The notes beneath the pieces are model-generated. The model did not search any database. It saw only the letters and a list, made by a program, of their open reading frames with translations, and was not told the DNA's origin. DNA of 63,994 bases, counting the filler, from Basidiobolus ranarum (Eukaryota): NCBI GenBank assembly GCA_040143965.1. It is 4 parts of 4 records of this genome, joined end to end, with 100 filler letters (N's around TTAATTAATTAA, not from the genome) between each part and the next. Parts side by side here need not be neighbours in the genome. Positions count along the whole stretch, not along the records: positions 16,668 to 33,204 come from JASJQH010000339.1; 3 more parts are not named here. One strand, written 5' to 3'. Shown here piece by piece: positions 3,795 through 61,774 of the stretch (the stretch's first letter is position 1; every line of letters starts with the position of its first letter). The position numbers and the translations under genes were made by a program.

Positions 3795-6700
3795 ATGAAT
3801 CTGCAAACAGATAGTCGCTCAGCAAATATCTCTGTCTCTCGCGAAATGGATTGTCCCCCATTTGCGGTGGCACGTCGTAGAAGAGCTCAATCTGTTTCGC
3901 ATCTAACGTACGCGTTGACTTCGGCATTAAAACTCCCGCCTATCCATGAGTCTGAGAACAACTATCATCTTCATTCCTCTCAACATAAGCCCTATTCTGT
4001 CGAGAAAGTTCCAAGTTGGGAGCCTACATTAGAACACGCCATCAAGGCCATAGTATCTATTAGGGCTAATCATGTTCGGAGTTTCGATACAGAAACTTCA
4101 GGTGATTTTTGAAAGTGAGAATCGCAATGGCTTCGGATATTCATTAATGTCTATAAATTTCTAGGTTCGTATACTGCTACCGGCTTCGTAGTGGATGCCG
4201 AGCGCGGTATCATTCTCTCCAATCGACATGTAGTCAGTCCTGCCCCTATCGTCGCTCAGGCTGTCTTCACTAATTATGAAGAGGTAAATCTTCAACCCAT
4301 TTATCGTGATCCTGTACATGATTTTGGCTTTTTCAAGTTTGATCCTTTGGCAATTAAATTTATGAAATTGGTGGAAATCCCTCTTACCCCAGAGCGAGTC
4401 AAGGTAGGACTGGATGTTCGTGTGGTTGGAAATGACGCAGGTGAGAAACTATCTATCCTGGCTGGAACCCTTGCCCGTCTTGATCGTAGGGCTCCAGATT
4501 ATGGAGTGGGCGAGTACAATGATTTCAACACCTTCTACTTACAAGCAGCGTCTGGAACGAGTGGTGGCTCATCTGGGAGCCCTGTACTTGATATTGAAGG
4601 GCATGCTATAGCTCTAAATGCAGGCGGAGCTTCTAGAGCATCATCAAGTTATTACCTGCCTTTGCATCGTATCGTTGCAGCTTTGAAGTATATTCAAGAA
4701 GGCAAACGTGTACCACGTGGAACACTTCAAACTGAATTCGAACATCTTCCCTACGATGACATTCGCAGGTTAGGCCTTAAGGCAGAATTGGAGCGAGAGA
4801 TTCGTGAGATTTTCCCAGAGGAGACCGGTTTGTTGGTGGTCCGACAGGTCCTTCCAAGAGGCCCTGGAGATGAAATCTTAACTCCAGGTGATATCATCTT
4901 GCGCCTGAACGGCAACTATCTCACCAATTTTGTAGATCTATTCTCTGTGATCGATGAATCAGTAGGAGCCGATATCAGTCTTACAATTAGTAGAGGATCA
5001 AAGGTCATGGAAGTTACACTCAAAATTCAAGATCTTCACTCCATTACTCCCAATAGATTTGTGGAAATCGGAGGTGGTGTTGTTAATGAGCTCTCTTATC
5101 AATTAGCCAAAGGGTTCAGCCAGCCCGTAGGAGGCGTCTACGTGGCGACAAGTGGGCATATGCTGGCTAGTGCGAGTGCATGGCGCAAAAGCATTATCCT
5201 TAGTGTAAACCATATTCCTACGCCTAATCTTGATACCTTCGTCGATGCTATTAAAACTCTTCCGGATGGCGCACGTGTACCGATCAGATATTACTCTCTC
5301 TCAAAAGTATACAAAGAACGTTTAATGATCATGCACGTGGCTCGTCACTGGCACAACTTTAGAATGGCAGAGAGAGATGACAATACTGGTATTTGGCGTT
5401 ATACAGATATGCCAACATCACCCGCCATTCATTCTTACTTGCCCGCTTCTGCATCATTCCCTACTCTTGATGGAAATATGAAACTGGCCGGGAAACTACT
5501 CCCATCATTTGTTGCCATCGATTTTCACATTCCATATTTGGTGGATGGCATGAAGGATACTCAATTCTATGGCATAGGACTCATCCTGAACATTGAACGC
5601 GGTCTTATCATATGCGATAGAGATACTGTACCGATCTCTATTGGAGATATATTCCTCACTTTCGCGAACTCAATTATCATCCCTGGTCGTCTTGTATACC
5701 TTCACCCATTTTTCAACTTTGCCATTCTGAAATACGATCCAGAATTACTCGGAGACACTCCTGTTCAAGCCGCAGAAATTCTCTATGATCACCCACTCTC
5801 ACAGGGCGATGAGGTTCACATGGTGGCCATCAGCGCTGATCACAATCCTCTTGTTAGACGTACACATGTCACCAGTATTGGAAATGTCTCCACTCGTGAA
5901 TGCTCACCACCTAGATGGAGAGCCATGAATGTTGAGGGAATTAAACTAGATGACCCAGTGTCGTGCCAGGGAGGTGTATTGTGTAATGCCGAAGGCCAAG
6001 TACTTGCACTTTGGATCAATTACTCAAGCCAGAATGACAAACAAAAAGACATATCCTTCATGCCAGGATTCTCTGTGGATCATCTACGACCGGTCATTGA
6101 GCCACTTATACTAGGCAAAACCCCAAAGTTAAGAGCATTTGATGTTGAATTTTGGACTTTGAGAATTGCTGCTGCGCGAACTTTGGGCTTGACTGACGAA
6201 TGGGTTCAACGACTTGAATCATCAGGAACCAAGCAGCATACCTTACTTTATGTTCTTAGCTTGCTTTGCTCCAACTCTCCAGTCTCCAATGTATTGAATG
6301 TGGGGGATGTAATACTTGAAATGAATGGGAAGATTGTCAATAAGATGAGCGATTTGGCGGAATTAAATACAGAAACGGAAGTCAAAGTGGTAAGTAAAGT
6401 TATCGTCTTGTTATCTAAGAATTTCTCATCTCAAATGTATGTCTAGAAACTCCTTCGTGACGGTAAAGAACTGGCGGTTACGGTCCCCACCGTCCCTCTC
6501 GACGGCCTAGGAACCACTCGTATCATTGGTTGGGCTGGGGCTCTAGTTCAAGAGCCTTACAGAGCCGTTTTGGAGCAAGTTAAGAATATCCCTCGAGGTG
6601 TGTACGTTTCATGTACTCTTTATGGCTCACCAGCAAATACGTACAACCTTAAGCCAGGGGTTTGGATCTCTGAAATCAATGATATTCCAGTACATGATCT

Positions 6701-6908
6701 TGTCTCATTTTGTGAAGCCGTCAAATTATTGAAAGATCGTTCACATGAAGGTAGCGATGATGAGTACATCCGCCTTAAAACGATTAGTCGAGCAGGTGAG
6801 ACGGTTCGTGTGCTTAGCTTGAAACCAGATGAGCATTACTGGCCAACTTGGCAATTGGTACAAGATGAAAGTACTACTGTTGGGTGGAAGTGTATTTTCG
6901 AGATTTGA
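3795..6908 (+). CDS. NMA111: Nma111/Ynm3 HtrA-family nuclear serine protease (two protease domains plus PDZ domains); 3 exons
   Basis: Exons 3795-4101, 4165-6389, 6447-6908 joined by GT-AG introns that keep frame. Catalytic motifs NRHVV, VHDFGF, GGSSGSP; YGVGEYNDFNTFYLQAAS; degenerate second protease domain; C-terminal HYWPT. Confidence 0.95.
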
Positions 6909-8132
6909 GATGGCTCGCAAACAAAATACGATATTTCTTCTTTTTAAAGTTTAAACTAGTATAGTTTTAGCAGTGTTTGATGTATTATATTCGTTTTCGA
7001 TAAGGTCGATATTCTACGTATATATCGTTAGAAAAGAGACATTCCAAAAATAAATAACTTAACCCCCATTAAGTAGGGACCACACATTATTCTATCCTGT
7101 TATCGTATATACCCCTTTGCATGTTTAGTACCAACACCTACTAATGGAAAATACCTATTCTTCAGGATATTGGGTCGAGACCTTTATTCTCCAGGTTGCT
7201 GTTTTGTTAGTTAATCTTGTATCTACTTAACTCCATCTTGAGTGGAGCTGGAAATATGTGCATGCATAGTTACTTATGAGTACTTATGTTTGACACAATT
7301 GGATCGACATTGCGAACATTCGTGTCGAATTACATCGGCCAAACACCGACCAGATCATCGGTCAAAGTCGAAACAGCGAGTCAGATTTCGAGATATATAT
7401 TTAGTGTAATGAATCTTACCAAGTAACTGACTCAGTTTCAGATTAGGATATCGAGGTGTATTACTACATCATCCGACAATAATTACGGTTCACACCCAAG
7501 TAATATGGTTCTCAAGAGATATTATGTGAATGGGAAAATCCCAATCAGTCCTCGTACGGCATGAGCTGTATCAGCTTCGTTCCCATTCTCCAGATTTCTA
7601 AATTCTTATTCCAGGTTAGCATTTCCCAATAGTCCCCAAGCTCTAGGATGCTACCAGCTACTCTACGTGAGAGTCATTCCTGGGGGTATCCAGCCGGTGA
7701 TTGGTTGTCAAGGAGTTTGTACCTAAAATTGAGTAAAATCTGTCCAAGATTTTGGATTATCGGCTTCATTTACCAATGACTTGACTATCTCAAGTTGAAC
7801 AGCACAAAAAAAGCACTGTGTGAACAATATTTATCATGTGAACAATTTGAGTTCGAAGTCTGCCAACAAGATTTACATCCAAAGTTGGATTTCATGGGAG
7901 AATTTCTCGTAGGATAGTAGATAGGTTTTCCCATCCATTGGACGGCATCCTCATTTAGGTAATAGAAGCCAATAATGTAATTCAACTCAAGCGTACACAA
8001 ATATTTACCTGTTATTATCATCGTGACTATAACCCATCTTTACTAACCTTTTGTTGGATCTGTCGATGGTATAAATATGAGCACATGCAACACGAAGTAG
8101 TCAGTATCTCGGTTTATCTTCTCTCTATCATT

Positions 8133-9611
8133 ATGAAAGCCTCTGTTGTGTTTGTTGCTTTAGCCGCCGCCCTTTCTGTCTCTCACGTTGATGCATGTGA
8201 CTCTGAATGGTTGCAACGCAAGATCACTCTCAAAGGAGTTCTCAGACATACAGATGCCTTCCAAAAGTTCGCTAATCTTCATAATCATACCCGTGTATTT
8301 GGAAGCAAAGGTCATCAACTTACCGTTGATTATATTCACGGGATTGTGAAAAAGGCTGGATACGATGTAACTCTTCAGGAGTTTACTGCTCCATACTCAG
8401 AGACATTGGCCCAGAAATTGACCATCGATGGAAAAGAATATGTAATTCAAGCTATGACTTTAACTGCCTCTACTCCTGAAGGTGGTGTTACAGCTCCACT
8501 CGTACTTATACCTAATGTTACTGGTGAAAAGGGATCAGCTGGATGTGAAGATGGGGATTTTGCTGGTCTTGATCTTAAGGGAAAGATTGCTCTTGTTGAA
8601 CGTGGCAGCTGTCCCTTCAATACAAAATCCATTAACGCTGGTAAACTCGGTGCTATTGCAACCATTGTATATAACAATGCACCAGGAGATTTCAAAGGAA
8701 CCCTTGGGGCTGAGGGTACTTCACAATTCCCCACTGGTGGTATCAGCCAAGAATCCGGTAAAATTTTGATGGAATTACTAAAGAAAGGTGAAGTCAAGGC
8801 TTCTGTCAACATTAAAGAACTTCGTGAGAACCGCTCAACCTATAATATTATCGCCGAAACTAAAGGTGGAGATCCATCAAAGGTGATTATGCTCGGTGCC
8901 CACTCGGACTCTGTCCAAGCTGGTCCTGGTATTAACGACAATGGTTCCGGTAGTGCTGCTCTACTTGAGTTGGCGCATCAATTCAGAAATGTAAAGCCCA
9001 AGAATAAGATTCGTTTTGCTTGGTGGTCTGCTGAAGAATTCGGTCTCGTAGGATCGGAGTACTACGTTGCCAAATTACCAAAGAGTGAAATCAATAACAT
9101 TGCTGTTATGCTTAACTTTGACATGATTGCCTCACCTAACTATGTAATTCGTGTCTACAAGGGAGACGAAAGTGGCCAAGCAGTTCCAGCTGGTTCTGAA
9201 GTTATTACTAAAATGTTTGAAGATCACTTCAAGGCAAAGAAGATTACTTATGAGAGTGATGTGTATCCTTTCAGTCGTTCTGATGTTGGTCCTTTTGCTG
9301 CTATTGGAATTCCTTCTGGAGGACTTGATACTGGTGCGGAGAAATTGAAGACAGAGGAACAGGCTAAGAAATTCGGCGGTAAAGCTGGAGAACCATACGA
9401 CAAGTGCTATCATCAAGCCTGCGACACCACTGCCAACATTGCTCATAAAGCCTTTTTGATTAACTCCCGCGGTATTGCACATGCAGTTGCCACCTACGCT
9501 AACGATGTTTCTAGTGTTTCGGCGGCACGTGGTGGCCCTGCCAAGGTTACTAAGAGAGCAATTGATTACACCAATCAAGGATCTGATGGCTGCTCCTTAC
9601 CCAGCATATAA
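8133..9611 (+). CDS. Secreted M28 zinc aminopeptidase with PA domain (aminopeptidase Y/LAP2-like), intronless
   Basis: Signal peptide MKASVVFVALAAALSVSHVDA from ATG 8133 (ORF open from 8085; TATAAAT near 8070). PA domain (KIALVERGSCPF). M28 motifs GAHSDSV, GINDNGSG, WWSAEEFGL, LNFDMIASPN, CYHQACD. Confidence 0.93.
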   Translation: MKASVVFVALAAALSVSHVDACDSEWLQRKITLKGVLRHTDAFQKFANLHNHTRVFGSKGHQLTVDYIHGIVKKAGYDVTLQEFTAPYSETLAQKLTIDGKEYVIQAMTLTASTPEGGVTAPLVLIPNVTGEKGSAGCEDGDFAGLDLKGKIALVERGSCPFNTKSINAGKLGAIATIVYNNAPGDFKGTLGAEGTSQFPTGGISQESGKILMELLKKGEVKASVNIKELRENRSTYNIIAETKGGDPSKVIMLGAHSDSVQAGPGINDNGSGSAALLELAHQFRNVKPKNKIRFAWWSAEEFGLVGSEYYVAKLPKSEINNIAVMLNFDMIASPNYVIRVYKGDESGQAVPAGSEVITKMFEDHFKAKKITYESDVYPFSRSDVGPFAAIGIPSGGLDTGAEKLKTEEQAKKFGGKAGEPYDKCYHQACDTTANIAHKAFLINSRGIAHAVATYANDVSSVSAARGGPAKVTKRAIDYTNQGSDGCSLPSI

Positions 9612-16054: not shown

Positions 16055-16538
16055 CTAAAAAATGCCTCTTGAAAATGATACAAATAGAGAAAGAAAAAAA
16101 GTGAATAGAGGATTCAATATGATGATACTTGATGCATTTGAGGCGTTAGCATCAAATAGAGCGATAGGATCACCAACACTGAGTCTGATGTTTTTGTAGT
16201 AAGTGTAAGTATCGGCTGGCGTAGCATAATCAGGAGTATTTCCACCAAAGAACGTAGAGAACATTATACTGGAAATGCCGATTCCTTTTTCTTTTCTGAA
16301 AGGTATTTCCCTAATGTCTAGCCAGAGAGTGTCGTTCAGATACAGTTGTATAATACCATCTTCCTTACCAATAGTGTTTACTTGAATATAAAGAGCAACT
16401 CGATTCCAAGCACCTTTGTTAAAATCAAAGCCTCTACCAATACTTTGCCCATAAACATCATTACAAGTGATCATTGGATGAGAGCACAGCTTATCTTGAT
16501 TAGATATTGGAAACCGGTAATGCGCAACCATAGTATCC
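16055..16538 (-). CDS. Polysaccharide lyase family 14-like protein, last exon only (5' part lost in gap)
   Basis: CNDVYGQSIGRG, GAWNRVALYIQVNT.GKEDG, IMFSTFFGG motifs typical of PL14; hydrophobic C-terminus after NASNASS. Confidence 0.8.
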
Positions 16539-16567
16539 TGAAGAGAAAAATCTAACAGTAATGAATC

Positions 16568-16667
16568 NNNNNNNNNNNNNNNNNNNNNNNNNNNNNNNNN
16601 NNNNNNNNNNNTTAATTAATTAANNNNNNNNNNNNNNNNNNNNNNNNNNNNNNNNNNNNNNNNNNNN
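16568..16667. other. Assembly gap with synthetic TTAATTAATTAA linker
   Basis: N-run, 12-mer at 16612-16623 with stops in all six frames, N-run. Confidence 0.97.
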
Positions 16668-17751
16668 TTTGTTGCGGAAAACGGTTTCGGTTGGTCCTTG
16701 CCAACGATCCGGAAATCTATTCAGTACTGGATCATCAGAAGGACCCCAGTAGAATCGGATCTCTTTGCTACGAGTTTACAGACCGGGTCTCGTTATTGAG
16801 TCATCAGGTTTCGACTCAGCTGGTACATGAGCCCTTACTCAACCTCACTAAGCAAAGGTGATTAAGTGTGTATTGAACTTAAACAATCTCACTAATTGAG
16901 ATCAGACTGGTCCTGAGTCCGGATTTTGCCCAGGCTATAATTGCAAGGTTTCAAGTGCTCACAAAATAACAAAAGATACTGATCGATGTCTAAGACAGCT
17001 ACTGCGTCTACCGTCACTTCAATTCCTATGTTGCTACAGATACCTGAATACCGCGTCATCTGGGGGCCAAGATTCCCTATTTTGTAGGAAACCAGCAACG
17101 CCAAACGAGTTGCGCTGCATATCGTCTTGGCTCTTTTAACAGGCCTGCGTATTGCCTTTAACAGCATTAACACCTTGGCCCGTACAAGAAACTCGCAAAC
17201 CGGTGAATGCTACAAATGAAACTGAAGATGCGATCTCTGCCAGGATTCCATAGAATTCTCATTTGAAGTGATGATTTTCTGATACAAACAAAGCAACCAA
17301 TCGTCTGTTTGCTATATTAAAGTTGCTGGTCTCAATTCCAAAAGAGGCAGTACGTTGTTGACAACTGAGCAGTATTAATAGAATCGTGATCACATTACCT
17401 CTCGAAACAGTCGATTTCTCGCGTGGCTGTTGCCCAAGTGATTTCCTATACTTGCTGGGCTTGTCATACCATTACCATGGTTATCGACTAAATCAAAGGT
17501 TGCGGGCTAAGCTATCAAGATATCAATTATCCAGACAGTCCTACTACGGATTCACATGGACCTTCTAAATAGAATTAGGCAGTTACTGAACCAATATACG
17601 GATTTAGTAATATAACGGACGTTCCTATTGTTGACTACGTATTAAAACTTCTTGATCCATTGAAGGAAAACTCACCTTACTCTGTGGTCCCTGTTTTAAT
17701 CCTTTGTAACTTGCTGGCCAGTCGAAAAAACTTTACACTTTGTCCACAAAA

Positions 17752-18275
17752 ATGTAAGATTGCTCTTAAGATTCATTCACACATGTCTAAATCTCACCAA
17801 ATTTACTTCTGATAGGTCTTCCCCTTACGATTCAACTCCTAATGGCGAATCAAGCCCTCAGCCAGGTGGTAATAAAGCCAAAATTGTTCAGCAACAAGTT
17901 GATGATGTAGTGAACATTATGCAAGAAAATGTAAACCGAGTTATGGAACGTGGAGAACGTCTAGATACCCTCAATGATAAAGCTGGTAAGTTGAGCCGAA
18001 CCAACAGTTTCACTTAACTAGCGACTGAAGTTATCTATTTTTTATAGAGGACCTTGAATCTGGCGCTCTTCAATTCCGTCGCGGCGCCAATCGCGTTCGT
18101 AAAAATATGTGGTGGAAAAACTTCAAATTGAAGCTTATAATCATAGCCATTGTGATAATCGTCGCTTTAGCCATTATCAGTAAGCATAAATTTTAAAAAC
18201 ACATTCGCATTCCCTTTTGAACTTTGACTCATAAAACCTTATCTTCTAGTCCCTCTAGTGATCAAAAACAAATAA
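17752..18275 (+). CDS. SNC1: Synaptobrevin/VAMP R-SNARE (Snc1/Snc2-like); 4 exons
   Basis: Exons 17752-17753, 17816-17985, 18048-18179, 18250-18275. VQQQVDDVVNIMQENVNRVMERGERLD, MWWKN and a C-terminal TM helix. Confidence 0.93.
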
Positions 18276-20515: not shown

Positions 20516-23500
20516 ATGTCCTATTCATTAGACTTTGATTACTCTAAAATATTCACAAAAGATATTTTGGAAACTCGTTCAAATATTGACGAATTTCTTC
20601 ACATCGTAACCGACGTAGATGAGAATCCAAAAAGTATTCATGCTTTCCTACCAAAACTTTGTTCGGCTGTTTTTGGTTCTCGTGAAAAAAGGTACTTTTA
20701 TAGTTGATTGTCTAAGAACCCTTACTGGAATGCTTATTTAAATATAATATTCAGAGGTTGGTTACACCGTCGTCTCACTCGCCAAGAAGAGAAAGCTATT
20801 TACGACTTGCTGCGACCCTCTTCACGCCTCTTCAAAGCCATAGTTCGCTTTCATACAGAACGAAATTTACTCTACGAGATTCTGCCGGATCGCTTACCTG
20901 TATACTAATTCAGTGAACCTAAATTTTAAGCTAATTATTAACGCGAATATTTTCACTTCGATTGTAGAGATCCATTCAAAACTCACTCACCTCTAACTCG
21001 TATGATACACTTCCGAATTATTACCGCGGTAAAGTTCAATTCGCCGACTCAAACCTAAATCAAACGAATTCCTCTTTATCAGGAAATGTAAAAAATGACG
21101 GAGTAAAGCTCATGTTCAGTATCCTTACTTACTAACAAAAATATCAATGATTTTATTGACTATCAACTTTTGTATTTTCCTTAACCAAACTTCTCAGACA
21201 TGCTTGAGTATTATTTGTTTTGCTTTTGCTACGTGATGACCGTGGATTTTCCTAACCAAGGTACCTCTCAATGGAGTAAGCCTGCTGTAATGGTATGTTC
21301 AGTTTCTTGTTCTTTGAGTACGCATAGCACACTAACCAAAAAAAAATTGTGTGTCTATACAGCCTGAAACCAACGATATGTACTCGCTTCATAACAACGT
21401 TGGGAGCTTCCCACAAACTATGGATAATAATGCTCAATATCAGCACAATATGCAAGCACAGAATGTGTATATCGAACTATTGCATGGATACATGGAATAT
21501 TTCATTCCCTATGGACCTCAAAAAGAAAAAACACAAAGAGACGGAGAAAAGTAAGTATTTACAACTTCCATGAACTTAAAGCCAGTACTTATCTTTCAAT
21601 CTAGAATTCAGCGTCCTTCCTACAATATCTTCACTGATAGGTAATGCTTCCATACATAAAAATGATTCCCTTAGTTTTATAACTCACATCCGTTTCATCC
21701 CATTAGCAATGTTAATTTTTCAGGAATGAAGAATGTAGAGTCTTCATTGGCATTGTCTGAATTTTTTGTAGGCACAGTATCTGAGCTTTGGTTCAAATAC
21801 TCAGAACGTTTCGAAGGCACTCGTGGGCGTCGTGCTTCATTCTCATCGGTTTGTATTTTTTCAATGTCGATGAAAGCTACCTAAAATATGCAACTTATGA
21901 TTTCTGTGTTTGAAAGATCAATCAACGCCCTTCAGTTGACTTGCTCCAGTGTATTAGCGATTTCATCAATCATTTAATTGGGGCCGATCTCAGATTTTCT
22001 TTTGCTCCCACCGAGGGAAAACTATGGGATAGCGATGATGGCGAGTTTTATCTACTTGTGAAGAAGTAATGGGTCATTGATTTTTGTCAAATTGAGAATT
22101 GTTACTCATTAATGTCAACTGTAGGACTGCTTATCATACATTACACCCACATCTGTACCAATTCCTTAAATCTTCAATGTCGTGGTGGCTGCTAGATGAT
22201 ACTTTTACCAATGTAAAATCTGCTTTATTTCATTAAGCGTGAGTTGATGTCTAATTGAGCATTTCTAATCCTACCGCAGATTGTAGATATTTGGCTGAAT
22301 TATATCTCACCTTGGGGATCTACCGGTCCGGCAGATAAAGACAAAGTCCTTAGCAAAGATTGGTAACTACTGATTCTGCGTCTTGTTTTACTTTATGGCC
22401 ATATTCATAATGTCGTAATTCGAATAGGATCCCTTTCATATTGGATAACTTTCTTTTCTACACCGAGATTTTCCGGAGATTTTTGGAACGTGCTGCCGAC
22501 TTAGAAATTGCAGAACCTGTTGATTTAGACGGAGATAGAAAATATTATGGCGCTCATCCTAGTCAAGGAGTAATTGCCAAACTTTCCCCCAAATCCAATG
22601 TCAGAATGATCAGAAGAGTTCTCAAATTATTCCGTACAATAGGTTTACACGAATACCTTCGTGGAAGTATGTAATTCATCACAGCTTCTCCAAATGTTAG
22701 CACTTTAACTAATGAACTTCTAGTCGAGTTGTTTATCATGTCACCCGATTATGCCTCTTCGTATCCCACGAACCTTTATCGCCATCAAAATTCACAATTC
22801 CCACAGGCAGATCCGCTTGCTCAATTTGGTTTGGACTCTAAACTGTTGAGTATGTATGGAGCTACTGTCAGACAACACATCAATAATTTAGAAGGTCCAC
22901 AATTTGAGTATAAACCAATTTTCCACGACTCGACAAAAGATACCGTAAGCAAACATATTCCTGATATTCAGTGTCCCCACTATTTACTCAACGACTTGTG
23001 GTCATACCTAGATCAAAATTCTTATTGCCAAGATTACTGTAGCCCTCGAGAAGCGTAACAAAATCTTGAACCCCGAGGCTCAACCAGCTCATCATGAATC
23101 TCAAAGTCTGTACCACAAAATCTTTGATTTTACCAAAAAAGCGGTTCAAGGAAACGATGAAGAAGCGTGGAAAGGCAGTTTAGTAAGACAAAAAGCCCGC
23201 CTAGAGACCATTTTAAGATTGATTGGCGAGCTCTTTGATGTATGCAATTGGAATTTTGCTCAACTCACTTTACAAATAGAAGTCTGACCTTCATGTTTTG
23301 ATTAGATTACCGATAAAGATTGGCAAGATTTGAATTTATCTCCTTCACTTGCCAATTTGCAAATCACCCCTGGTGTTCAAACTCCTGAATTCTTTTCTGA
23401 AGACCCCACGCATTTGACTCAACGAGGACGGACACAGGTACATCTCTATGTATTTCATGCACAGCCCCCGAAAACACTTTCTTAACTATAACTCCTTAGG

Positions 23501-23860
23501 TTAAGCTTGGTCTCCGCAAATGCTCCAAATACGATGTTCCAATTATTGGAGATAGAGGAGATTTGATTGTTAGATCCTACGAAAGTGCTACCTTGGTGGA
23601 TCTCACTCGCTGGTTAGATATGCATGCTGACCACTATGTAAGTTTAGTAATTCGCTTTTCTTGAAACGTTCCACTTATGAACCTTTGTTTTATAGTACAA
23701 AGAATTAATTCGATACCTGATCGAACAAAAGCAAATCCAAGTACCACAGAGCCTTCGCACTTTTCCATTTTCATTCCGTTTCTTTGCGGCTTACCCGAAT
23801 CTACTGTTTTTATTCATCTCTTGGTTATTTTATCGAATCTTTTGTTTTATCTTCTTCTGA
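20516..23860 (+). CDS. SMPD4: Sphingomyelin phosphodiesterase 4 (SMPD4/nSMase3)-like protein, many exons
   Basis: Spliced motifs FLPKLCSAVFG, GW, FNMLEYYLFCF, DIWLNYISPW, DNFLFYT, LTQRGRTQVKLGLRKC, VRSYESATLV, FRFFAAY and a C-terminal TM segment match the SMPD4 family layout. Confidence 0.8.
21119..21197 (+). other. U12-type (minor) GT-AG intron in SMPD4-like gene
   Basis: 5' site GTATCCTTAC, branch TTCCTTAAC at 21177-21185, CAG at 21195-21197; splicing gives MFNMLEYY. Confidence 0.92.
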
Positions 23861-24447
23861 ATGCTTTCCCTTACACTTTTGAATTTATTAGCTATTTTAG
23901 TCACAACCTTCCTCCAAACCCACATATTTAAACGTTCTTGTATGGGTTAAATTCACTTTTTCAACCTTTAAACAGTAAAGCATATGTTGATGTGCCAATG
24001 AGAGTAGAAACCATTTCTATTTTTATAACTTGCCTAGCAAAACGCACTGGTTGCAGCTTCTTGTTTCCATTTGTATTGGAATTGATTTAAAGTTCAGTGC
24101 ATTCATGAAAGAAAAAGGGATGGAGCCACGAACCCACTTTAATAGTTAGTGTTTGTTGGCCTCTTGTAAAGACAATTTCACCAACATTTTATCGAGCGAA
24201 CTCGAAGAAAACCATGCGCTTTAATACGTAGGTCGGGTCTTGCCTAAAAAATCCGAAGGGTTTATTAGGGATAATTAAAATAGATTTCATGAAAATAATT
24301 TGACTAAATATTAATTCCCGAGTAAACCAAACTCTACCATCTTCCTAAAATAGGACCAAACCTATCTTCTGTCTTAAATTATTTGACAAGGAAAATTTCT
24401 ACTTCAACTTTGTTCAAGAGGTTAAGCCACTCTAGTAAACTGTAGCC

Positions 24448-26162
24448 ATGTCGAAAAGTACGGGGCTAATGCGTAATTTGATAGAATTATGTAAACGTAG
24501 AGGTTTTCTATTTCAGTCAGCTGAAATTCACGGTGGTCTTCGTGGGGCTTATGATTACGGACCACTTGGTGTTGAGCTTAAGCGTAACCTTTCTGAAGCT
24601 TGGTGGTCAGATATGGTGTATAAAAAAGATAACGTGGTTGGTGTGGATACTTCTATCATCACACCACCTGGCGTTTTCAAAGCTTCTGGTCATCTGGAAT
24701 CTTTCACTGACGCATTGGTCGATTGTAAACTTTCTAAGGAGAGATTCCGTGCTGATAAAGCTCCCCCCATCACAGTCATAGAGAAAAATGGTCGAAAGTT
24801 ACTCCCTATCGCTGCTCCTGATAAGGCCATTGCTAAAAATTGGGAACAGGAAATTCAGCAACTTTTACCCGGCATCACAGTTAATCGTCAAGGTAAGGAA
24901 CTCACGTTGCCTGTGATTGAACTTCAGAATCCTGCCTCCGTGGAGACAGCTGAATCCAATCCAGGAAAAATTCTATTCGAAGGAAAGGATGCCACTGTTG
25001 AGTTGGCTTATCATGGTTATGTTGAACCGAATAGCAATTCACCGTTTTTAACCGAAAGTCGACCATTTAATTTGATGTTTAAAACCTTTCTGGACCCCAT
25101 TGATCCTATAGAAAGGGTAATGACTACCACACTAGCCGAGTCTAAAGAAACTGATAATGTCAAACAGTTGCGTCAATCGGTTGATAACGAACTAGCTGGA
25201 TCCACAGTCTTTCTTCGACCCGAAACTGCACAAGGAGTTTTCGTGAATTTCTTAACCTGTCAACGCACACAAAAACTTCGGCCACCTTTTGGTATTGCCC
25301 AAATAGGGAAATCGTTTCGTAACGAGATTCGTCTTGAACACGCGATCTTTCGTACTCCAGAATTCGAACAGATGGAGTTGGAATATTTCGTTCCACCTGA
25401 GGAGGATTCTAAATGGCTTTCTTATTGGACTGAGGAACGGTTCAGCTGGTGGAAGCGCTTCGCTAATCATCCAGAAAATTTCCGCCAACGTCCTCATGAA
25501 AAACATGAGCTTGCTCATTATGCTAAAGGCTGCGTAGATGTGGAGTATAAATTCCCTTGGGGCTGGGGAGAAGTAGAAGGGTGGCAAATAGAGGGGATTA
25601 TGACCTTAAGCAACACTCGGAACATTCTGGAATCCGTCTTGACTATAGTGAAGACTCGAAGGATTTGATTACAGAAGGCGGGGAGAGTAGAACTGAAAAA
25701 CGAACATATACTCCTTACGTAATCGAATCATCTTGCGGCTTAAACCGTGCTCTTCTTGCGTACCTTGTCGATGCCTATAGTGAGGATAGCGTTATTGACC
25801 CTACCACCGGTAAGAGCGCAAAGAGACCTTTACTTCGACTTCATCCACAATTGGCGCCGATTAAGGTGGCGGTTATGCCACTGATGCCTAAGCCTGAGCT
25901 CCTGCCACTCGCCAAACAGCTTGTGAAGGCGTTCCGTCGTGAACGGATCAATGTTCGTATGGAGGACCAGAATCTTAAAATTGGTAAACGGTACTACCGA
26001 CATGATGAGGTCGGTACCCCTTGGTGTGTCACGGTGGACTATCAATCTCTAGATGACAATATGATCACCATCCGTGATAGAGATACGATGGAGCAAAAAC
26101 GAGTTAGTATAGAAGATGTAGTAGAGTTGGTCAAAACCAATTTGAGAGATCGAGATGACTAG
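24448..26162 (+). CDS. glyQS: Bacterial-type homodimeric (alpha2) glycyl-tRNA synthetase, intronless, with a -1 frame break near 25580
   Basis: LCKRRGFLFQSAEIHGG..GAYDYGPLGVELKRN, ASGHLESFTD.LVDC, FNLMFKT, LRPETAQG, GIAQIGKSFRNEI, EFEQMELEYF. Second frame continues VANRGDYDLKQH, PYVIESSCGLNR, anticodon domain IGKRYYRHDEVGTPWCVTVD. Confidence 0.9.
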
Positions 26163-28041
26163 ACATTGTATATTCTTGATGTTTATTTCATTCTTCATAC
26201 CGCCTTCATTTTATTTAGCAGATTTCATACACCATTCCATCACTTCCTTTGTCGTGGAATTCTGTTCATCCTTTACATCGACCACAAAGAGTAGTACACT
26301 ATATTCCATTGATAAATTTAACCTTTAAACACAACGTAGACGAGAGTCTCCTTAATTGTCTGATAAATCGATTCTTCGATAGCATTTTTTTATCCAACGC
26401 CAAGGAGCAGCTCCTTTCTATATACACAGAACCGTAACAGTTGAGGACAAAGTTTGGGCATTAGGAGAGAGCTATTATTTACGATGTTTAGCCAGTTCTG
26501 TATTTGTAGTTAGTCAATGGCTCTTGTTTCATGTCGCTTCCAGCATTAGTGGGGTATTTCTGCCATTTTCACCGCCTGTGGTTATAAAGAAGTCAAGAGC
26601 ACATTGGACATAAAAACGTCCAAAAATCTTTATGCCAACGTAAGACTGTCTAGTAAGAGAAATTTTGAGTTTCAAATGAGTGTAGTCTTATCGTAGACCG
26701 ACAGCTTAGCTGATGGATCGTAATCACTATTGTAACGAGGTTGTGTTTTGTAATTACTATTAGGTAGCTTCATGGCCGATAGATACCAAACTATACTTAG
26801 ACAATGGGAAAGATTTCAACAGCATTATGCTGTTCTGGTGGAAATGATAGGAAAATAAGCGCCCCAAAACCTAGGGGCAGTAGTAAAAATCAGCTTAGCT
26901 AGATCTACTTGTATGTAAGCCAAATCAAGAATAGATCGTTGCCTATGACCCTGGAGAGACTCTCCCTTTAAAACGCTTGATTCCATTTAAAGTATCCCAT
27001 CTGTATAAAGATGAGGCATGAACCGGTTTAAGGCCATGAGTATTGGTTGCTTTTCTTGGAGCTGAGGCCTATAATCTCGATTCGGTGCAAGCCTAACCCT
27101 AAGGTAACGTTTGAAAACACCGGAACATTTATAAATATGTAGTCCCATTTAATTGTCATGTCTGCGCCAATGGTTATTAGTCACTGGCAGTCGAACAGAT
27201 TCAATATTAAATGAGTTGCATTGAAAACAAGCCCAATGCTCTACAATACATCTTCCATTTGAATATACACGCTGGTTCCGTAGCCAAGAGTCAAGATCTT
27301 AGCCAGTGATCTTTCATCTAATCGCGTGAACCCATACCAGGTCCTTTTCTGTGCCAACCTTACTGGAGGGCGTATTGTTACAACTGCTACATTCTGCTTA
27401 TGTGTCCCGTTGGCGCAGTATCGTCTTATCCCACTAGAGCGTTGCCTGGTTTATTCCCTACGCAGGCCAAGTGGTGATCCTCTGTTCATATCGACCTCCG
27501 TGGTGCATTCCCTGACCCAAGCGAGCCCAATTTCAGCCGATTTGTCAAGTGCCACTTATACGGACTGAGTATTGTCATCTTTGATTGATGATTCTGCTAA
27601 TGCTACTGACTCTTTCTACTAGAACTGACATCCAATCACAGCTTGGATATTGGCTATTGTGACGAATTCGTCTATGCGATTGCCATATAAAATAGAATGA
27701 TTGGAGAATGTCAACATAGTTCTTCTCATAAAGGAGCTTATTACAAAAATAGGAGTTCAAATCGACGAGCTAGAAATAGGAGTTAAATCCGGAATCATTT
27801 GCATAATTATCCTTTGTTTACCCATTCCACTAGTTGAACTCCTCATCTTTCGTAACCTTTGAGCCACACCACTTAAACACGGTCTTTTAAGTTGTTGTGC
27901 TTCACTCATCCCCTCCCAAGTAACTTGCAATACTCTTTCCTTTATAACAGATCTACTTAACGGTTGTCTTTCCGCTTAGCTATTTCCCTCAGTTTATTCA
28001 TACCGATACCTTCTCTTCCTCCATAACCTTAGCTCAAGAAA

Positions 28042-29424
28042 ATGCCTAAGGAGCCAAAGAAACGTACCGGCTTCCTCAACACATTAGAACCAGAACAAAA
28101 AGTCGCCTTAGACGAGCTATGGAGGGTGTTGTTCGAGAAATTCGAAACTAATGATGTAGAGGAAACCGAATCTCCTACTGATAACACCACCGAAGCCAAT
28201 AGAAAGTCTGGGTTCGGAAAGTTCTTTCATAGAAACAAAACTGAGAAAGAGGAGGCCAAGCAAACCAAAAACCCTAGCCCTGAACCAGAAACTCTGGCTA
28301 ACCAACAAAGTTTGAGAGAGAGTTTCTGGAGATTTGTATTGGGTGACCACCCAGACTCCATCCTGTTGCGCTACCTAAGAGCTCGTAAATTCAACGTGAG
28401 TAAAGCTTCGAAAATGTTGATGAGCACTCTGAAGTGGCGTATTCAAAACGATGTCACTGGTATCATCGAGAAGGGAGAAAAAATCGTTAGCACTCACGTA
28501 CTTCAAATCGGAAAAGGATACTTGTACGGAGTGGATAAAGAGGGTAGACCAGTTAGGTAAATTGAATTCACTTTGTATTTCTACTACGCAAACGTTGCCG
28601 GATACCCAGTTGAAGTTGCGTTTCTTGCTCGGATAATTGTAAATTCTAATCGTTGAAATATTTGCCGTGTAGTTTTTGTCATGTTCGACTCCACAACAAG
28701 GAGGATGAGCCTATCGAAGAGCTTGAGAAATTCACCATTTGGTTGATGGAGACTGCGCGGTTATTCTTGATTCCACCGGCTGATTGTGTCTCCGTTGTGT
28801 TTGACATGAAAGATTTCTCGCTTAGTAACATGGACTATCCTTTTGTCTCCTTCATGAACAAGGTTTTGGAGAGTCACTATCCTGAGAGTTTAGGAGTGGC
28901 CTTAATATTGGGAGCTCCCTGGGTATTTTCTGGTACATTTTTATGCTAGTTTCTCATCGATGTGATGTGAACATTCAAATCTAACCTGGTTTCTAGGTGT
29001 GTGGAAGGTTGTCTCTCCCCTGCTCGACCCCGTTGTCGCTAGCAAAGTACAGTTTTTGGACAAGTCAGAAGATCTGCGAAAGTACATCGAGCCCAATATG
29101 CTACTGAAACAATTCGGTGGGGAGAATCCTTACGAGTTTAAATTCATCCCACCACAAGCAGGAGAAAACGATATCATGAATGATACAGAAGCAAAAGCTC
29201 AAGCCTATGAGCAATGGTGGAAATCAATCGATCATTTCGAGCAAGTAACCAGATTGCGACTTGCCACCCCAAGCCCGGAGGTTGAAGCACAAAGAGAAGC
29301 TTCTGCTCAGCAGCTACGTGCTGATTACTTCAAGCTAGATCCATATATTCGTGCTAGAACAGTTTACCATCGTTTAGGAATTCTTCAAAACGACGGATCA
29401 GTCAACTGGCAGGCACGCGCTTAA
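28042..29424 (+). CDS. CRAL-TRIO/Sec14-family lipid transfer protein (Csr1/Sfh2-like); 3 exons
   Basis: Introns 28557-28672 and 28933-28996. DHPDSILLRYLRARKFNV, DKEGRPV, FDMKDFSLSNMDY, HYPESLG, LDPVVASKV, LDPYIRART. Confidence 0.93.
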
Positions 29425-31290
29425 ATTAATTCCACTTGATTAGCTAAATACATCGCCCGTGTCTCTTCGTTGAAGCCCTGCCCTGGGTAACCTCTTTACT
29501 TTACTCCTTGTTAAACCGAAGCGTACCTCTCTTTGTATTGAACCTAAAAAGATAAATAAACCGGATTTACAATATCCGTGATGCCTTATACTCGCGTGTT
29601 TTATTCCCTCAAGCACCAATTCGATCTTGTGTGATGAGTGCACTAGGGCGCACAGTGGCAACACAGTTTCTGATGACCAAAAATGCAACAATAGTTCACA
29701 TAGCGTAAAATGCAAACAGAAGATATTTTTGGGGTGCGTAGTATTGTTCGCTGATATAATCATTGTGTCGGTTGTACTGATTAAGTCACCACTCAACAGT
29801 CCCTCAGGAGTTAAGCCATACGCTTTCTGAATTGCTCCACTTTCATCAACACTTTAACATATGGAACTGAAAGTACGACTATTGAGCATACAGATAAGCG
29901 AAAGCCCAAAAAGTTAGCCAAGTCCTAAGGCTGGAACCTAGTAATTGCATTTAGAGTACAACAATCTGTTACACATTTCGGAAGGAGTGTCATCTGCCAT
30001 AGCCGTTATCTAAACCATAGATTCGTTGGTTCATTGTGTATGAAATATCCAACCAAGTAACTTTAAACTTTTATTGGTTTTAATATATCTTATTCTTGTT
30101 TAGTATCTTCTACAGTGTTGGTTGAGGTTCCTTGGGTCAATAGAAATATATTAACTACAGATGAGCGTCACTTGCGGCTTGTTTGCCAAGCAGTAGATTA
30201 ACAACCAGATGGCTATATGCCCATTTATCGCATCAGTTATGAGCAGTCATATAATATGCACACAATGCGTCTCTCTTAGATGACTTGGTATTATTGGTAT
30301 GTATATGCACTACTCTTAACAATGTCACTACAAAACAACTCAAGTGCAATAAAATATCAATTCTGCATCATGCACTTTCCATCTAACTGCTACTCATCCC
30401 AATGACCCAAAATATGCAAAATCCTGTTGAATCTCAATGACTTGGTGCTTCGATATTAGCCACGGCTCAGGTGTAAGGAATGCTTTCTCAGTATTGCCAG
30501 TCAGCCCTGCTTCTATACATCTGATTATTTCATATGTTGACAAAGTTAACCAAGGTTCATTAGTCAACTGAGGATATAATTCAGTATATATGAATTATCC
30601 AAGATTTAGCAAAGTAAGAGTAGAAATCCCAAAGAACATCAAATTAGCCCCACAGCAATTTACCTCACTCTTAGTATTGTTTAAACAATATACATTCTTT
30701 TGTTTTCAATGCTACTCTCAAAGGTATATATTAGTCAATCAATACATGCCAATTCAAAAGAAACACTCAAAAAACTCTTGGATCTCACTAAAATTCACTG
30801 TATAGATGAGACCACCAACTTTCTGTTAAAGTATTTGGGAGCCTGTTGGAAGTGGTTTAGAAAATTAGAGATATTGGTGGTTTTCACTTGTTGCTATTTA
30901 CCTAATTTCAGCATTCCTACCTAACTAATTATTTTGTATTTCTTTAAACCTAACTTATATCTTAATACTTCAAGTTGTGCTTTAGCTAAAGGTCTGGTTA
31001 AGATGCCAGATATTGTTTCTTCAGCAGGGCAATAGACAAGTTCAATTATATCATTTTCTTGTTGAAGTGTTTGGGAGTCTGTAGGAAGTTATTTGGAGAA
31101 TTTGAGGATTTGGTAGTTTTCACTTATTGATTTATTGAGTAGAAAGTTGACATTTAGAGTTTTGTCAAGATATAAACAAAATAACATGTAGAATATGTTA
31201 AGGAAGGTCCCAGTAACATGTGTGCACAGTTTGGGGCTTCTAGAACGGGTTTGAAAAAATCTATATATCTGAGAGCTTCCAAGTTGGTGT

Positions 31291-34093: not shown

Positions 34094-35671
34094 ATGAACT
34101 CGGTCTCAGAACCTGACCTAGCCAAATCTTCCACTTGGCCCAAAAGGAGGGTTTTTTTACGCTCCCCCTCTCCTAACCCGCTATTAGAGACACCCAAATG
34201 TCCAGAGTTAGCGAAATATGCCAAAGTAGCATCTGAAACCAGCAGTAATTCGGATAGTGCTCTTCTTGTTCCCGAAGCTAAGAAGTGTGCTGAACAATCT
34301 CAGAATACTCCGGTTCAATTGAAAAGCCCAAGTAAAACACCCACGCTAGCTGAGCAAAGCTCGTTAAAACAGAAGAAAGAGCCGGTCATAAAATCCAGAA
34401 AGCCCACACTGACTATACCTATACCCCGAACACTGGTGCGAAAAAAAAGTGGCGAGGTTGTAAAGTCAGCCTTAAAGGGAAGAGTCCGCTCTATGCCAAC
34501 AACACCGACGAAGTTTGTCCATTTTGGTGCCAAGTTGGAACAAGTTAAGCTATTTCAGAAAGAACAAAAACCAGAATCCATATCCAATCCAGTGTCCGAT
34601 GATGAAGAAGGATACTCATCCGACGAAGATACTGAATATGAATTAACTACCAGACTTCCCAATTTCCCACCTCCTATTTTCTCCAGATCTATCTACAACT
34701 CCAAAACCATTTCTGTGGATATGATTCAGTTGTCTGAAGACAAACGAGATCTCGTGGGAACTTTACAAGTCCAAAACTTGGCCTTTCGTAAGGTTGTCGC
34801 CGTTCGATACACCTTTGATTTCTGGAGAACTGTGGAAGAAGTCGTAGCAGACTTCAAAGAGTCACCTGTCAAACCATGCCCGCAATTTGTAGGAATTGAT
34901 AGATTTTCATTCACCATTAACTTGGAAAATCGAGTCAGCTTTTCGCCGACATCACCCAAAAAAACCATGTTTTTCGCTGTGAGGTATCAAGTCAATAACC
35001 AGGAGTACTGGGATAATAATGATGGAATGAACTACCAGGTAGATCTTGTCTACTCCAAACCTTATCGCTTCCAAGCTTGGCCATTTGACCTTGGAACTGC
35101 GAATACTATCATTTCACCAGACTCCGGCCGCATAGCCTCCGCCAACACTCGAAACTCGACGTTTGGATTTGAATCACCGGAGCCCCCTGTACTATCGAAT
35201 GGTCACAACAATAGCTTTGGTGCCAGATATGATTTTGGAATCGCTCTATCAACACCAGGCGAAAGCGACCAAACCACTTTCGAGAAGATCACAACCATAG
35301 GAGCTGCTGATCGAGACGTCACGCCTGATTCAGTGAATTCCATTCACAATCTTAAGCCGAAATCTTCCCTGGCCAGCCTCTTCGCTCATCCCCCTTACAA
35401 GTCCTACGAACCACCTAATTCCAATGGCATTGTTCCATGGGATGAGCAGCCAGTCTCTTGGGATGGATACGATAACTATACTACCGATTATATCAGTAGT
35501 CCCAATAGTACGACCTTTACTAGTCCTGTCCCAATTCCAGTTAAAAATAGTACCTCCAACCGAGGAGGCCGGCATTCAGGTGAAGATGAACAATCTTACT
35601 CCTCTGGACTATACTCTGGGCCCACATTCAACAGCTACTCATCCTCACCAGTTTCGCGTATCCGCGGATAA
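34094..35671 (+). CDS. Glycogen-targeting PP1 regulatory subunit with CBM21 domain (Gac1/PPP1R3-like), intronless
   Basis: RKKSGEVVKSALK, RVxF-type KFVHF, GTLQVQNLAFRKVVAVRYTFDFW, FAVRYQVNNQEYWDNNDGMNY. Confidence 0.92.
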   Translation: MNSVSEPDLAKSSTWPKRRVFLRSPSPNPLLETPKCPELAKYAKVASETSSNSDSALLVPEAKKCAEQSQNTPVQLKSPSKTPTLAEQSSLKQKKEPVIKSRKPTLTIPIPRTLVRKKSGEVVKSALKGRVRSMPTTPTKFVHFGAKLEQVKLFQKEQKPESISNPVSDDEEGYSSDEDTEYELTTRLPNFPPPIFSRSIYNSKTISVDMIQLSEDKRDLVGTLQVQNLAFRKVVAVRYTFDFWRTVEEVVADFKESPVKPCPQFVGIDRFSFTINLENRVSFSPTSPKKTMFFAVRYQVNNQEYWDNNDGMNYQVDLVYSKPYRFQAWPFDLGTANTIISPDSGRIASANTRNSTFGFESPEPPVLSNGHNNSFGARYDFGIALSTPGESDQTTFEKITTIGAADRDVTPDSVNSIHNLKPKSSLASLFAHPPYKSYEPPNSNGIVPWDEQPVSWDGYDNYTTDYISSPNSTTFTSPVPIPVKNSTSNRGGRHSGEDEQSYSSGLYSGPTFNSYSSSPVSRIRG

Positions 35672-39363: not shown

Positions 39364-40006
39364 TTCAAGTAAAGTAGTGACGATATAAAAGGGTTTATTT
39401 GAGAGTCACAGTATCAACACGAGTGCCTACAACCCAAACGAACTGACGTCGTTTATATTTAGTAAGAGAGATAACTTTATTAGCCAACTGTTGGTGAGTT
39501 GGGATTGGGTGGATTTTGTAATCATTATTGCATAGCATTCATTTTAAATTTTGATGAATATTGATTTTCCCACCACGTTACTTTGTAGTGAAGTCAATTT
39601 GTACATAGAGTGTAGCGCTAATGCTTCAGATGGATTCTCTGGCAAAATGCAAGGGCTTTTGTACAAACCTGAAGTCAACATAAGGATGTGCTATGTAGCT
39701 TTATTGCACTGGGTTGTTACCGGTAAAGAAGGTCTTCAAATCATTTTTATAACGTATCGTACAATTCTACAGATATAAGTACTGAACCCTAGCAAAATCA
39801 TAATTTAAATATCTAACATGCTGTAAAGTGAAACAGCAGGTAATCCACTTCGCCCCCATAAGATTGCACGCCGTTGTTGAGCTGGGTATCGTCAACTGTG
39901 ATGATGGTTTAAAACACAAAAAGATAAATTCTTGGGCGTGTTCCTAATAATAAAGTAAATAGTGCAAGTGCTTTAGTACGGATCAATTGTTCTTCGGAAA
40001 TGAAAA

Positions 40007-44643
<4,637 letters not shown>

Positions 44644-45138: not shown

Positions 45139-47115
45139 TTATGATTGTTGTTCTCCAGAGAGACGCGCAATTGCCTTTAAGAGAGAGTTTAGTTTTAGAG
45201 AATTACTATACCCTTAACATAATGACCTACTTCCTTTACGGATCTGGAGGAGACATCAGGTAAGTTTGATAAGGAATCAGGCCGGATTTCGTAGAGTACA
45301 GGCAGTTCCTACATCGACACGCATTAGTGCGGCAAATACCAAAGCCATCCCAAGGTTACTTACAGCGATCGAAGGACAGAGGTCCATAGGAAGATAGGGT
45401 CCATATTGCTCGAAAAATACATGGCGCTCACGCTCCTCAGCTAAACAAGAGTGAATGGAGTGGACAGCATGGAGAAATACAGTTCATAAAGACAATACCT
45501 AGGTGAAGCTCCTGCAGCGCTTTACTATAATCTTCAGCAACTTCTTGATGGTATTTCTCAACCTGGCGTCGCCTATCAATCTCAACAACAAGGTGATGGT
45601 ATGCAGATGAAAACTCGTGGTACCTGGCCAATTATTAGCAACGGGTTTGAAGGAGCGATGAGTAACAACGAGACGTTACCATGCTACTAAATTGTATAGC
45701 TCATCTGAGAAGCCCTCCAAGGAGACACGTCGACGTGAGAATTCAAGCTACGTTTACGACGTTAGTACTGCTTTACTTCCCAACAATCAATAAAGAACCA
45801 ACTTTGATGGATTTGATGTTTTCTACAATTTTGGTAATTTCAGAGGAGCATTCATCAATCTTAGTCAACAAGTTCACAAGCTCGTTTTGCACCGAGGCAT
45901 ACAGCTGATTACGGATCTTAACATCCTCGCTTTCGTGTGGTAAGCATAAGAAAGAGTGAACAACAGGCCTACTGTGTATGAAATATTACCTAATCGCCTC
46001 AATCATTTGTAATGACTCTTCCAAATCTTCCAGAACTGACGGGATCTCATCTGTATCTTTCTCCAAAACTACTCAAGAGAATTCATACTTAATGCTTACT
46101 CGGCGAAACACAACTCTTGATACTAACCTGATATATCTATGTTGAACTCCTCTTCCGACTGAGACTGGCATACCCTAAATCAAATACCGTCAATACGTGG
46201 TCCAGCTGAATCTCTGAAGGCTCTTTCTTACTTTAATACTGAGCTGACTTGATCGTAATGCCGTGCAAGAGATAGCAACACATCGGCCATCCTATTGGTT
46301 TCGTCTTCTTGTCTTTGTCGAGTTTCAATAGAGTAGGTGAATCCAGACTCTTCGAATGTAATGGAAGAGTTGTTGAGGCCGTTGAATTCTTCTAGCCAAC
46401 CGCTAAGCTTCGTGTAATCATCTAGGGACTCTTTCAATAATTCCTTGAAGATTATTGGATTTATGTTTACTCAGCATATGGCTTAAAACTTTACTACCTT
46501 CAAATATGTGAGCTCCAAATGGGTGTTCTGCTTTAAAGTGGCAACGCTTTGCTCATCGATGTAATCGAAAAGAGTCATATTTTCCGAGTTTTCTTTCAAA
46601 GGAAGCTTAGATTTCCCTCCGTTCACTGCAATTCCGGATTCAATGGCATTCCTAATAATCCCGTCATCCACCGCTATATTTTTCAGTAGGAAAAATACCT
46701 CTTCTAGACAAGAAGTGGCATCTTGGACCTTCTCCTCCTGATCCTAAAGAATTAACAAATTAATTACTTCGTAATAGGTTAGAAATGTATGGAACTAGGA
46801 TTTATACCTGTACGAAGGCAGATAAACTTGTTGTCTGCCGCCGAAAGCACTCACCGAAGCTCTCTAAAATCTTTGTATGAAGAGGGATTATTAAAGGCGA
46901 TAAGAAAACGGATGAAGTGATATGTTTTCAGCAATAACCTTTAATTGAAAGGCTAACTCTTCACTTAGGAACTTGGTTTTTGGATAAAGTATTTCGATCA
47001 GTTCTAAATGAGTTCGACAATCTTCAACTAATTCGTTAGCCTCTGAACATAGATTTTCTCCTACTAACAAACTACGCTTCGAAATGGCAGTTAAGTTTAT
47101 AAGGAGTTGCTCCAT
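45139..47115 (-). CDS. ATG17: Autophagy scaffold Atg17, multi-exon
   Basis: SKRSLLVGENLCSEANELV, TLFDYIDEQSV, MADVLLSLARHYDQ, AYHHLVVEIDRRR, FFEQYGPYLPMDLCP; short GT-AG introns keep frame. Confidence 0.85.
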
Positions 47116-47498
47116 TTGAATTGTGAATACCAAAAAATAGAAACGAAGGTAGAAGAAAGGACAAAGTGTGACTGTTTGCGTATATGTTATTTGACTAGTT
47201 ATTGTAGCTCTTCTTGGTAGAATTAAAGGATGCGAGTCACCAATGGTTAGGCTTAGTAAGATTTGAGTACAGCAGAATATATTACCATATTTCGATGAAA
47301 TGATCTATTTTAGTGTAAAATTATACATCTACATTTTGTAGATTGGATAAATTTGGGACGTTTGCAAGGATAAGAAATTTATTGACTGATCGAAAAATGG
47401 ACTTAATGAAATCTGTGCATTAAGGAGATGCTAATCAAATAGTGAGCAGTAATGCTTGGTTAGAGTAGAGAGCTCTCTTTGCTTCTTTTGGGAACAGA

Positions 47499-60950: not shown

Positions 60951-61774
60951 GGAAATCACGAACAGTTGCGTGCGTTTTTTTTTCCGGGTGGTTATCATTA
61001 CTGATAGGTTATTAGATTGTTTGCTGTACAGTGAATCATTATAGGTCACATTTCTCAGCCACTTTGAACTTTTTCTTCATTATTCGATGGTATCTAAAAC
61101 TACACCAACATATATGCTAATTTCCCATTTCTAATCATAAGCTACACATGCATCCACTGAGCACGTGGAAGGAAATTGAAACTGCTACAAATGAATTTCT
61201 ATTCTTATCCAAAAGTGAGTAGACACCTGTTATCACTAGAGGGGTGCTGAGTCTTGGAGGGTGTGCAGTAATTACGAGTTATCTAAAAGTATTGGCTAAA
61301 TAGAAGTATACGCACGTTAAAATTAGCAAGATGCAACTAATTCTAGGATGCATTAAGGTGTGAATTCCGAGGTTTCAGGCTATTAACCGTGACCAAAGTA
61401 AATTTAGTTATCAGATATGCATCCAATCTTGTGACGCTGAGATGATGATAGTTGTTCATGAATACCAAATATTAGTAAATACTAGTTGAATGGTTGAATT
61501 GTTACATCGAAATTGTTACATCGAAATTACTCTTCAAAATGATGGTAGTAGCAGTATCAGTTAGATCCAAGCTGCGAATGAGGCGAGTATGGAGTGATAA
61601 GAAAATCAGTGTAAATACACGGAGTTCCATACTCTGCCGACTAAAAATGCAGGTACAAACCATACGCCCCTAGAATGTATAGGCACATCACTTCGGGAAT
61701 TTGCATTGGGTGTGTGGGGTGGTAACCATAGGGTAGATATAGAGCGGCTCATCCCAGAAATGGGTTTGATTTTG

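Follow-up and report, generated by a model that had tools for sequence, protein, structure and literature searches.

Does the third intron of an SMPD4-like gene of the fungus Basidiobolus ranarum belong to the minor, U12-type class, and which spliceosome removes it? An earlier note on this DNA had taken the intron for a U12-type one lying among ordinary neighbours, and had inferred from it a working minor spliceosome. We followed the question up in the window, that is, the whole stretch of 63,994 nucleotides (filler included), whose G+C content lies between 34 and 45% and whose genes contain many short introns. The positions of the features are compiled in Table 1.

Table 1. Features of the window, with positions counted along the whole stretch
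Feature	Position	Strand	Remarks
SMPD4-like (mit_SMPDase) gene, coding part	20516..23860	+	exact mapping of the deposited protein P0001
Intron 3 of the SMPD4-like gene	21119..21197	+	79 nt, phase 1, GT-AG, U12-type by sequence
5' splice site GTATCCTT	21119..21126	+	U12-type consensus; A, not G, at -1
TACTAAC, U2-type branch consensus	21130..21136	+	just behind the donor; 3' end 62 nt away
Branch-site motif TTCCTTAAC	21177..21185	+	A at 21184 presumed to be the branch point; 13 nt to the last base of the intron
3' splice site AG	21196..21197	+	first AG met after either candidate branch motif
SMC3 gene, coding region as deposited	39770..44643	-	18 exons, 17 introns; exact mapping of P0003
SMC3 intron 16, second U12-type candidate	40180..40260	-	81 nt, phase 1; junction used by the deposited model
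ORF, Nma111-like trypsin/PDZ protease	4119-6905		Pfam match
ORF, M28 peptidase	7959-9608		Pfam match
ORF, polysaccharide lyase 14	16058-16615		Pfam match
ORF, synaptobrevin	17700-18014		Pfam match
ORF, class II tRNA synthetase with HGTP anticodon domain	24439-26159		Pfam match
ORF, CRAL-TRIO	28033-29421		Pfam match
ORF, CBM21	34094-35668		Pfam match
ORF, ATG17-like	46894-47304		Pfam match
ORF, Ric8	48445-49438		Pfam match
ORF, SMI1/KNR4	52823-53458		Pfam match
ORF, NIF phosphatase	58895-59701		Pfam match
ORF, DPBB domain	61601-62266		Pfam match

The SMPD4-like gene and the junction across its third intron

Comparison of the translation of one exon with the protein collection led to a single deposited protein of 791 aa (P0001), with 100% identity. 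When this protein was mapped codon by codon onto the window, a model of 16 exons (20516-23857) and 15 introns of 54 to 79 nt was obtained, followed by the TGA stop codon at 23858-23860. The protein was deposited under the name sphingomyelin phosphodiesterase 4, neutral membrane, of Basidiobolus, and is the sole member of its own 90% cluster. Searched as a whole against Pfam, it matched mit_SMPDase (PF14724) with an E value of 4e-29 and 101.6 bits (cut-off 23.7), while the search with single exons had given a weak hint only of this family, in one of ten exon translations (E 0.086). The profile and the deposited name thus agree with the earlier assignment of the gene as SMPD4-like. The sphingomyelinase label of the Basidiobolus protein is the depositor's annotation, and a neutral sphingomyelinase activity is putative. 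That the host is an early-diverging fungus, as had been presumed, was borne out by the SMC3 protein of Basidiobolus ranarum, which maps exactly onto the window.

Relatives of P0001 were collected in two ways. When 1.84 billion representatives were searched in full with HMMER, 282 relatives were returned at E <= 0.001. At the same threshold, a word-based search with 5571 candidates yielded two proteins, namely the query and one from Cladochytrium, and an orthologue from B. meristosporus was not found among these 5571 candidates.

The exact mapping of P0001 needs the junction 21118|21198, which is evidence at the level of the protein. Across this junction the protein reads ..GVKLMF-N-MLEYYLFCF.., and it is the only junction that restores the conserved F-N-M-x-E-Y-Y. 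In an alignment of 30 sequences the family consensus at this place is NMxEYYxFxFA, with homologues reading for example ..LTFNMLEFY.. and ..IMFNMFEYY... Since the alignment continues through the junction with this consensus, homology fixes the junction in addition to the deposited model.

It may be asked whether 21119-21197 is spliced as annotated at all, or whether a prediction artefact or a pseudogene has been mistaken for an intron, the pair of motifs having arisen by chance. In favour of such a view, neither motif taken alone is enriched in the window. Against it, a read-through into the intron meets a stop five codons in, after ILTY, and the frame reopens differently exactly after the AG. 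Moreover, the spliced product restores the family-wide F-N-M-x-E-Y-Y, and the 16 exons join to an uninterrupted protein of 791 aa that matches mit_SMPDase. We consider an artefact or pseudogene extremely improbable.

Some predicted proteins of the SMPD4 family begin close to the same place. P0174, P0183 and P0210 start exactly at the Met following the split Asn (MVEYF.., MLQFY..), and P0190 starts two residues earlier (MFNMFQYF..). These starting points hint at an exon boundary at this position in other genomes that was not bridged by the gene predictors.

Splicing signals, chance expectation and neighbouring introns

Intron 3 opens with GTATCCTTACTTACTAAC and closes with TTTTCCTTAACCAAACTTCTCAG. 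U12-type donors follow the consensus RTATCCTT, in agreement with what the earlier note had stated, and as a branch motif we accepted TTCCTTAAC or TCCTTRAY located roughly 10-20 nt before the 3' splice site. The donor of intron 3 corresponds to RTATCCTT at all eight positions (+1 to +8), and its branch motif agrees with the U12 consensus at nine of nine. The distance between the branch motif and the AG was measured as 10 nt and is filled by CAAACTTCTC only, without a long polypyrimidine tract. Hence the length of the intron, its U12 donor, the branch motif about 10 nt before the AG and the agreement of both signals with the consensus, all of which had been claimed before, were recovered in the sequence. 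The TACTAAC close to the donor is a detail absent from the earlier note.

How often such signals are to be expected was estimated for the window. The octamer RTATCCTT occurs 12 times, compared with 6.32 expected, and three of 100 shuffles reached 12; TTCCTTAAC occurs twice, compared with 0.72 expected, and 15 of 100 shuffles reached two. We then defined a composite signal consisting of GTATCCTT, 35-65 nt, CCTTAAC, 6-22 nt and AG. It was found twice in the window with an expectation of 0.01, and none of 100 shuffles gave two. Thus, either motif alone is unremarkable in the window, and the composite is rare. Both composite matches are annotated introns of conserved genes, namely intron 3 of SMPD4 and intron 16 of SMC3. 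Only these two of the 12 donor-like octamers are followed by the branch motif; the others inspected were coding or lay without coding context.

A relaxed scan of the window, in which one mismatch each was allowed in the donor and in the branch motif, gave 16 candidates (simulated mean 6.7, maximum 14). Three of them that were inspected on the minus strand (11652-11591, 49482-49362 and 53581-53418) showed no coding continuity and were discarded. The other copy of TTCCTTAAC in the window (minus strand, 31197-31205) was likewise rejected, having AT-rich surroundings and no upstream donor. As credible U12-type candidates in the window, only the two introns with a perfect donor stand.

The remaining introns of the same two genes served as a background. 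They resemble the candidates in being short, in their GT-AG ends and in belonging to the same transcripts, and differ from them in their donors, which are GTA[AT]G-like or looser and in no case GTATCC. Within the SMPD4-like gene, the other 14 introns (54-70 nt) have donors of the form GTA[A/C/T].. or GTTTGT; in general, U2 donors in Basidiobolus are loose, comprising GTA and variable bases. From the 30 other introns of SMPD4 and SMC3 a U2 donor matrix was built, covering the positions -3 to +9. Intron 3 of SMPD4 scored 2.84, the lowest value of all 32 introns, and intron 16 of SMC3 scored 3.89, the third lowest; the background extended from 3.18 to 9.47, so that the separation by this score is not clean in the sample of 30 introns, one accepted U2 intron (GTAGGATAA) lying at 3.18. 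With 14 U2-like donors beside it and the lowest matrix score, intron 3 is surrounded by U2-type introns as described previously.

The candidates stand apart in further respects. G occupies position -1 in 16 of the 30 background introns, A in the SMPD4 candidate and T in the SMC3 candidate. Both candidates are in phase 1, and each is the longest intron of its own gene (79 nt in SMPD4, 81 nt in SMC3; background 51-79 nt, mean 64.5 nt). The branch motifs of the background introns are weak CTNAY sequences or not recognisable. A recognisable CTNAY is present in 20 of the 30 introns, and the one nearest to the 3' end lies 6-33 nt before the end in 19 of these 20 and 52 nt before it in the other.

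The same two splice sites could in principle be used by the major (U2-type) spliceosome, in which case the U12-like look of the intron would be a coincidence or a relic. U1 would then recognise the donor by its GTA start, and U2 would bind to TACTAAC at 21130-21136 or to the CTTAAC core further downstream. TACTAAC indeed agrees perfectly with the U2 branch consensus, and no other AG intervenes before the acceptor in use; its distance of 62 nt from the 3' end, however, is far outside the range of CTNAY in nearly all of the background introns. The looseness of U2 donors in this genome also speaks for the U2 route, as the accepted U2 intron with GTAGGATAA scores almost as low as intron 3. Furthermore, intron 14 of the same gene pairs a U2 donor with TTTCTTAAC. 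On the other hand, a donor matching at eight of eight positions and a branch motif matching at nine of nine, at the right spacing, are expected only 0.01 times per window and were seen twice, both times in real introns. In addition, minor snRNAs and hundreds of minor introns have been reported for the genus (PMC10639083, PMC11347168). Taken together, we regard splicing of intron 3 by the major spliceosome as improbable.

Intron 14 of the SMPD4-like gene (23438-23499, plus strand) merits a description of its own. Besides its U2-type donor GTACATCT (GTACAT), it has TTTCTTAAC at a distance of 15 nt from the AG. A CTTAAC-like branch sequence is therefore not exclusive to U12 introns here and not diagnostic by itself. 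In the terms given by the 2024 survey (PMC11347168), an intron of this kind would be hybrid or major-like.

We conclude with considerable confidence that the Basidiobolus homologue of SMPD4 possesses at 21119-21197 a genuine GT-AG intron of the U12 type (minor class), which would be removed by the minor and not by the major spliceosome. According to the general scheme of minor splicing, the donor GTATCCTT would be bound by U11 and later by U6atac, and TTCCTTAAC would pair with the U12 snRNA within the U11/U12 di-snRNP, the A at 21184 (or 21183) being bulged. The AG located 13 nt downstream of the branch A would be taken as acceptor, and joining of 21118 to 21198 would complete the AAC (Asn) codon of F-N-M-x-E-Y-Y.

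Intron 16 of SMC3 and minor or minor-like introns of mammalian SMPD4

The second composite match resides in the gene for SMC3, the deposited protein of which (P0003, Basidiobolus ranarum) comprises 1249 aa. On the minus strand, the donor GTATCCTT of intron 16 is located at 40260-40253 and the branch motif CCCTTAAC, which has one mismatch to TCCTTAAC, at 40204-40197. Its branch A is the base at 40198, at a distance of 18 nt from the 3' end. The exons flanking the intron match positions 129-180 and 182-218 of the Pfam profile SMC_N, the gap corresponding to the split codon, and the sequence across the junction is ..YRTAVA-S-MIHELSE.. in both SMC3 proteins of Basidiobolus.

The position of this intron could be followed into other fungi by means of faulty proteins. 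Among the 120 SMC3 homologues listed, 12 depart from the conserved sequence directly after ..TAVA (P0025, P0028, P0053, P0054, P0057, P0063, P0066, P0070, P0081, P0085, P0090 and P0105); they are ORF-style fragments or faulty models, some of them assigned by name to Racocetra fulgida and Umbelopsis isabellina. The residues that follow are G or C and then K, M, S or T. Taken as the beginning of a phase-1 intron, they correspond to GTAAR, GTATG, GTAGY/GTTCN or GTACN, and at least one glomeromycete model reads through a GTATG start. A GTATCC start, which would read x-I-L, was not encountered in any of the 12. P0067, which departs after ..TSVA, was considered as a thirteenth case and dismissed, as it cannot be read in this way. 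Since the residues of the read-throughs spell U2-type starts, the position would be common to fungi while the intron class differs. From these protein read-throughs, we infer that an intron of the same position and phase is probably widespread in fungi, with a U2-type start elsewhere.

At its other end the deposited SMC3 model shows a peculiarity. The last exon (39770-39943, minus strand) adds 55 residues beyond the end of the B. meristosporus protein (..FVEQEHAQ). This extension looks to be of low complexity and no homology was seen for it; the annotation may have run on into the 3' region here.

Minor or minor-like introns of SMPD4 are also on record in mammals. In supplement file 1 of PMC11347168, an intron of mouse Smpd4 (chr16:17626539-17626638, plus strand) is classed as 'minor' and one of human SMPD4 (chr2:130172678-130172786, minus strand) as 'minor-like'. 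These introns resemble intron 3 of the Basidiobolus gene in that they belong to the same gene family, are short (100-109 nt) and fall into the minor class or near it, the comparison having been made at the level of the gene. A search of the main-text literature did not reveal a published discussion of an SMPD4 minor intron.

Two scans of metagenomes were carried out for homologous loci. A pattern derived from the alignment of the SMPD4 family gave 266 matches, none of which was confirmed by tblastn; as this pattern held the Asn codon that is split by the intron, loci bearing the intron could not match it. A DNA pattern was composed of the U12 branch motif, a gap, AG or AC, the split Asn and M-x-E/Q-Y/F-Y/F. 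It returned 38 loci, which is about the number given by a rough chance estimate, and none of the 38 was a relative of SMPD4 when compared by tblastn with 150 proteins of the family.

A history of these introns can be sketched tentatively. The SMPD4 intron might be the orthologue of the mammalian minor intron, retained at the same codon since before the split of fungi and animals, and the SMC3 position might be ancestral and occupied by a U12-type intron in Basidiobolus and by U2-type introns in other fungi. We rate this scenario as possible, with the odds rather against it. If it were true, the two introns would illustrate, with a date, how the class of an intron can switch while its position stays fixed, and they would have a bearing on the richness of Basidiobolus in minor introns as compared with the poor Zoopagomycota ancestor reconstructed in PMC10639083.

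Minor splicing in Basidiobolus

Larue and Roy (2023, PMC10639083) counted 249 minor introns (0.554%) in B. meristosporus, and the 2024 NAR study 'Taxonomy of introns' (PMC11347168) gives 237 minor introns for this species together with genes for U11, U12 and U6atac and a putative divergent U4atac. Basidiobolus is the fungus published as richest in minor introns, and for Ascomycota and Basidiomycota PMC10639083 states that no convincing ones were found. The surveys of B. meristosporus deal with the same genus, the same intron class and the same type of evidence (consensus donor plus branch motif) as our analysis; they differ in that here proteins of B. ranarum match. Two of 32 mapped introns is too small a sample to be set against the published 0.5%, and does not conflict with a genome rich in minor introns.

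Components of the splicing machinery were also sought in the window. No match to Rfam families was obtained at the gathering score in the window, which as such is uninformative for the snRNAs of the genome. Minor-spliceosome proteins were not recognisable among the 40 scanned of 51 window ORFs of at least 95 aa, a result equally uninformative for the genome, and there was no splicing factor among the Pfam-matched long ORFs of the window. A working minor spliceosome in B. ranarum, as proposed by the earlier note, is suggested by the second intron with the same signals and by the surveys of B. meristosporus.

As publications on Basidiobolus already cover its minor spliceosome and hundreds of its minor introns, the U12-type intron of the SMPD4-like gene is an ordinary and expected result, and the known distribution of the minor spliceosome is unchanged by it and by the SMC3 intron. 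New are the individual introns in SMPD4 and SMC3 of B. ranarum; the intron class is known in the genus. Because its position is probably shared with U2-type introns of other fungi, intron 16 of SMC3 is a usable case for the study of intron class conversion. Textbook U12-type introns are present in B. ranarum as they are in the published B. meristosporus, and the two described here could provide junctions for tests by RNA-seq or by assays of minor splicing in an early-diverging fungus.
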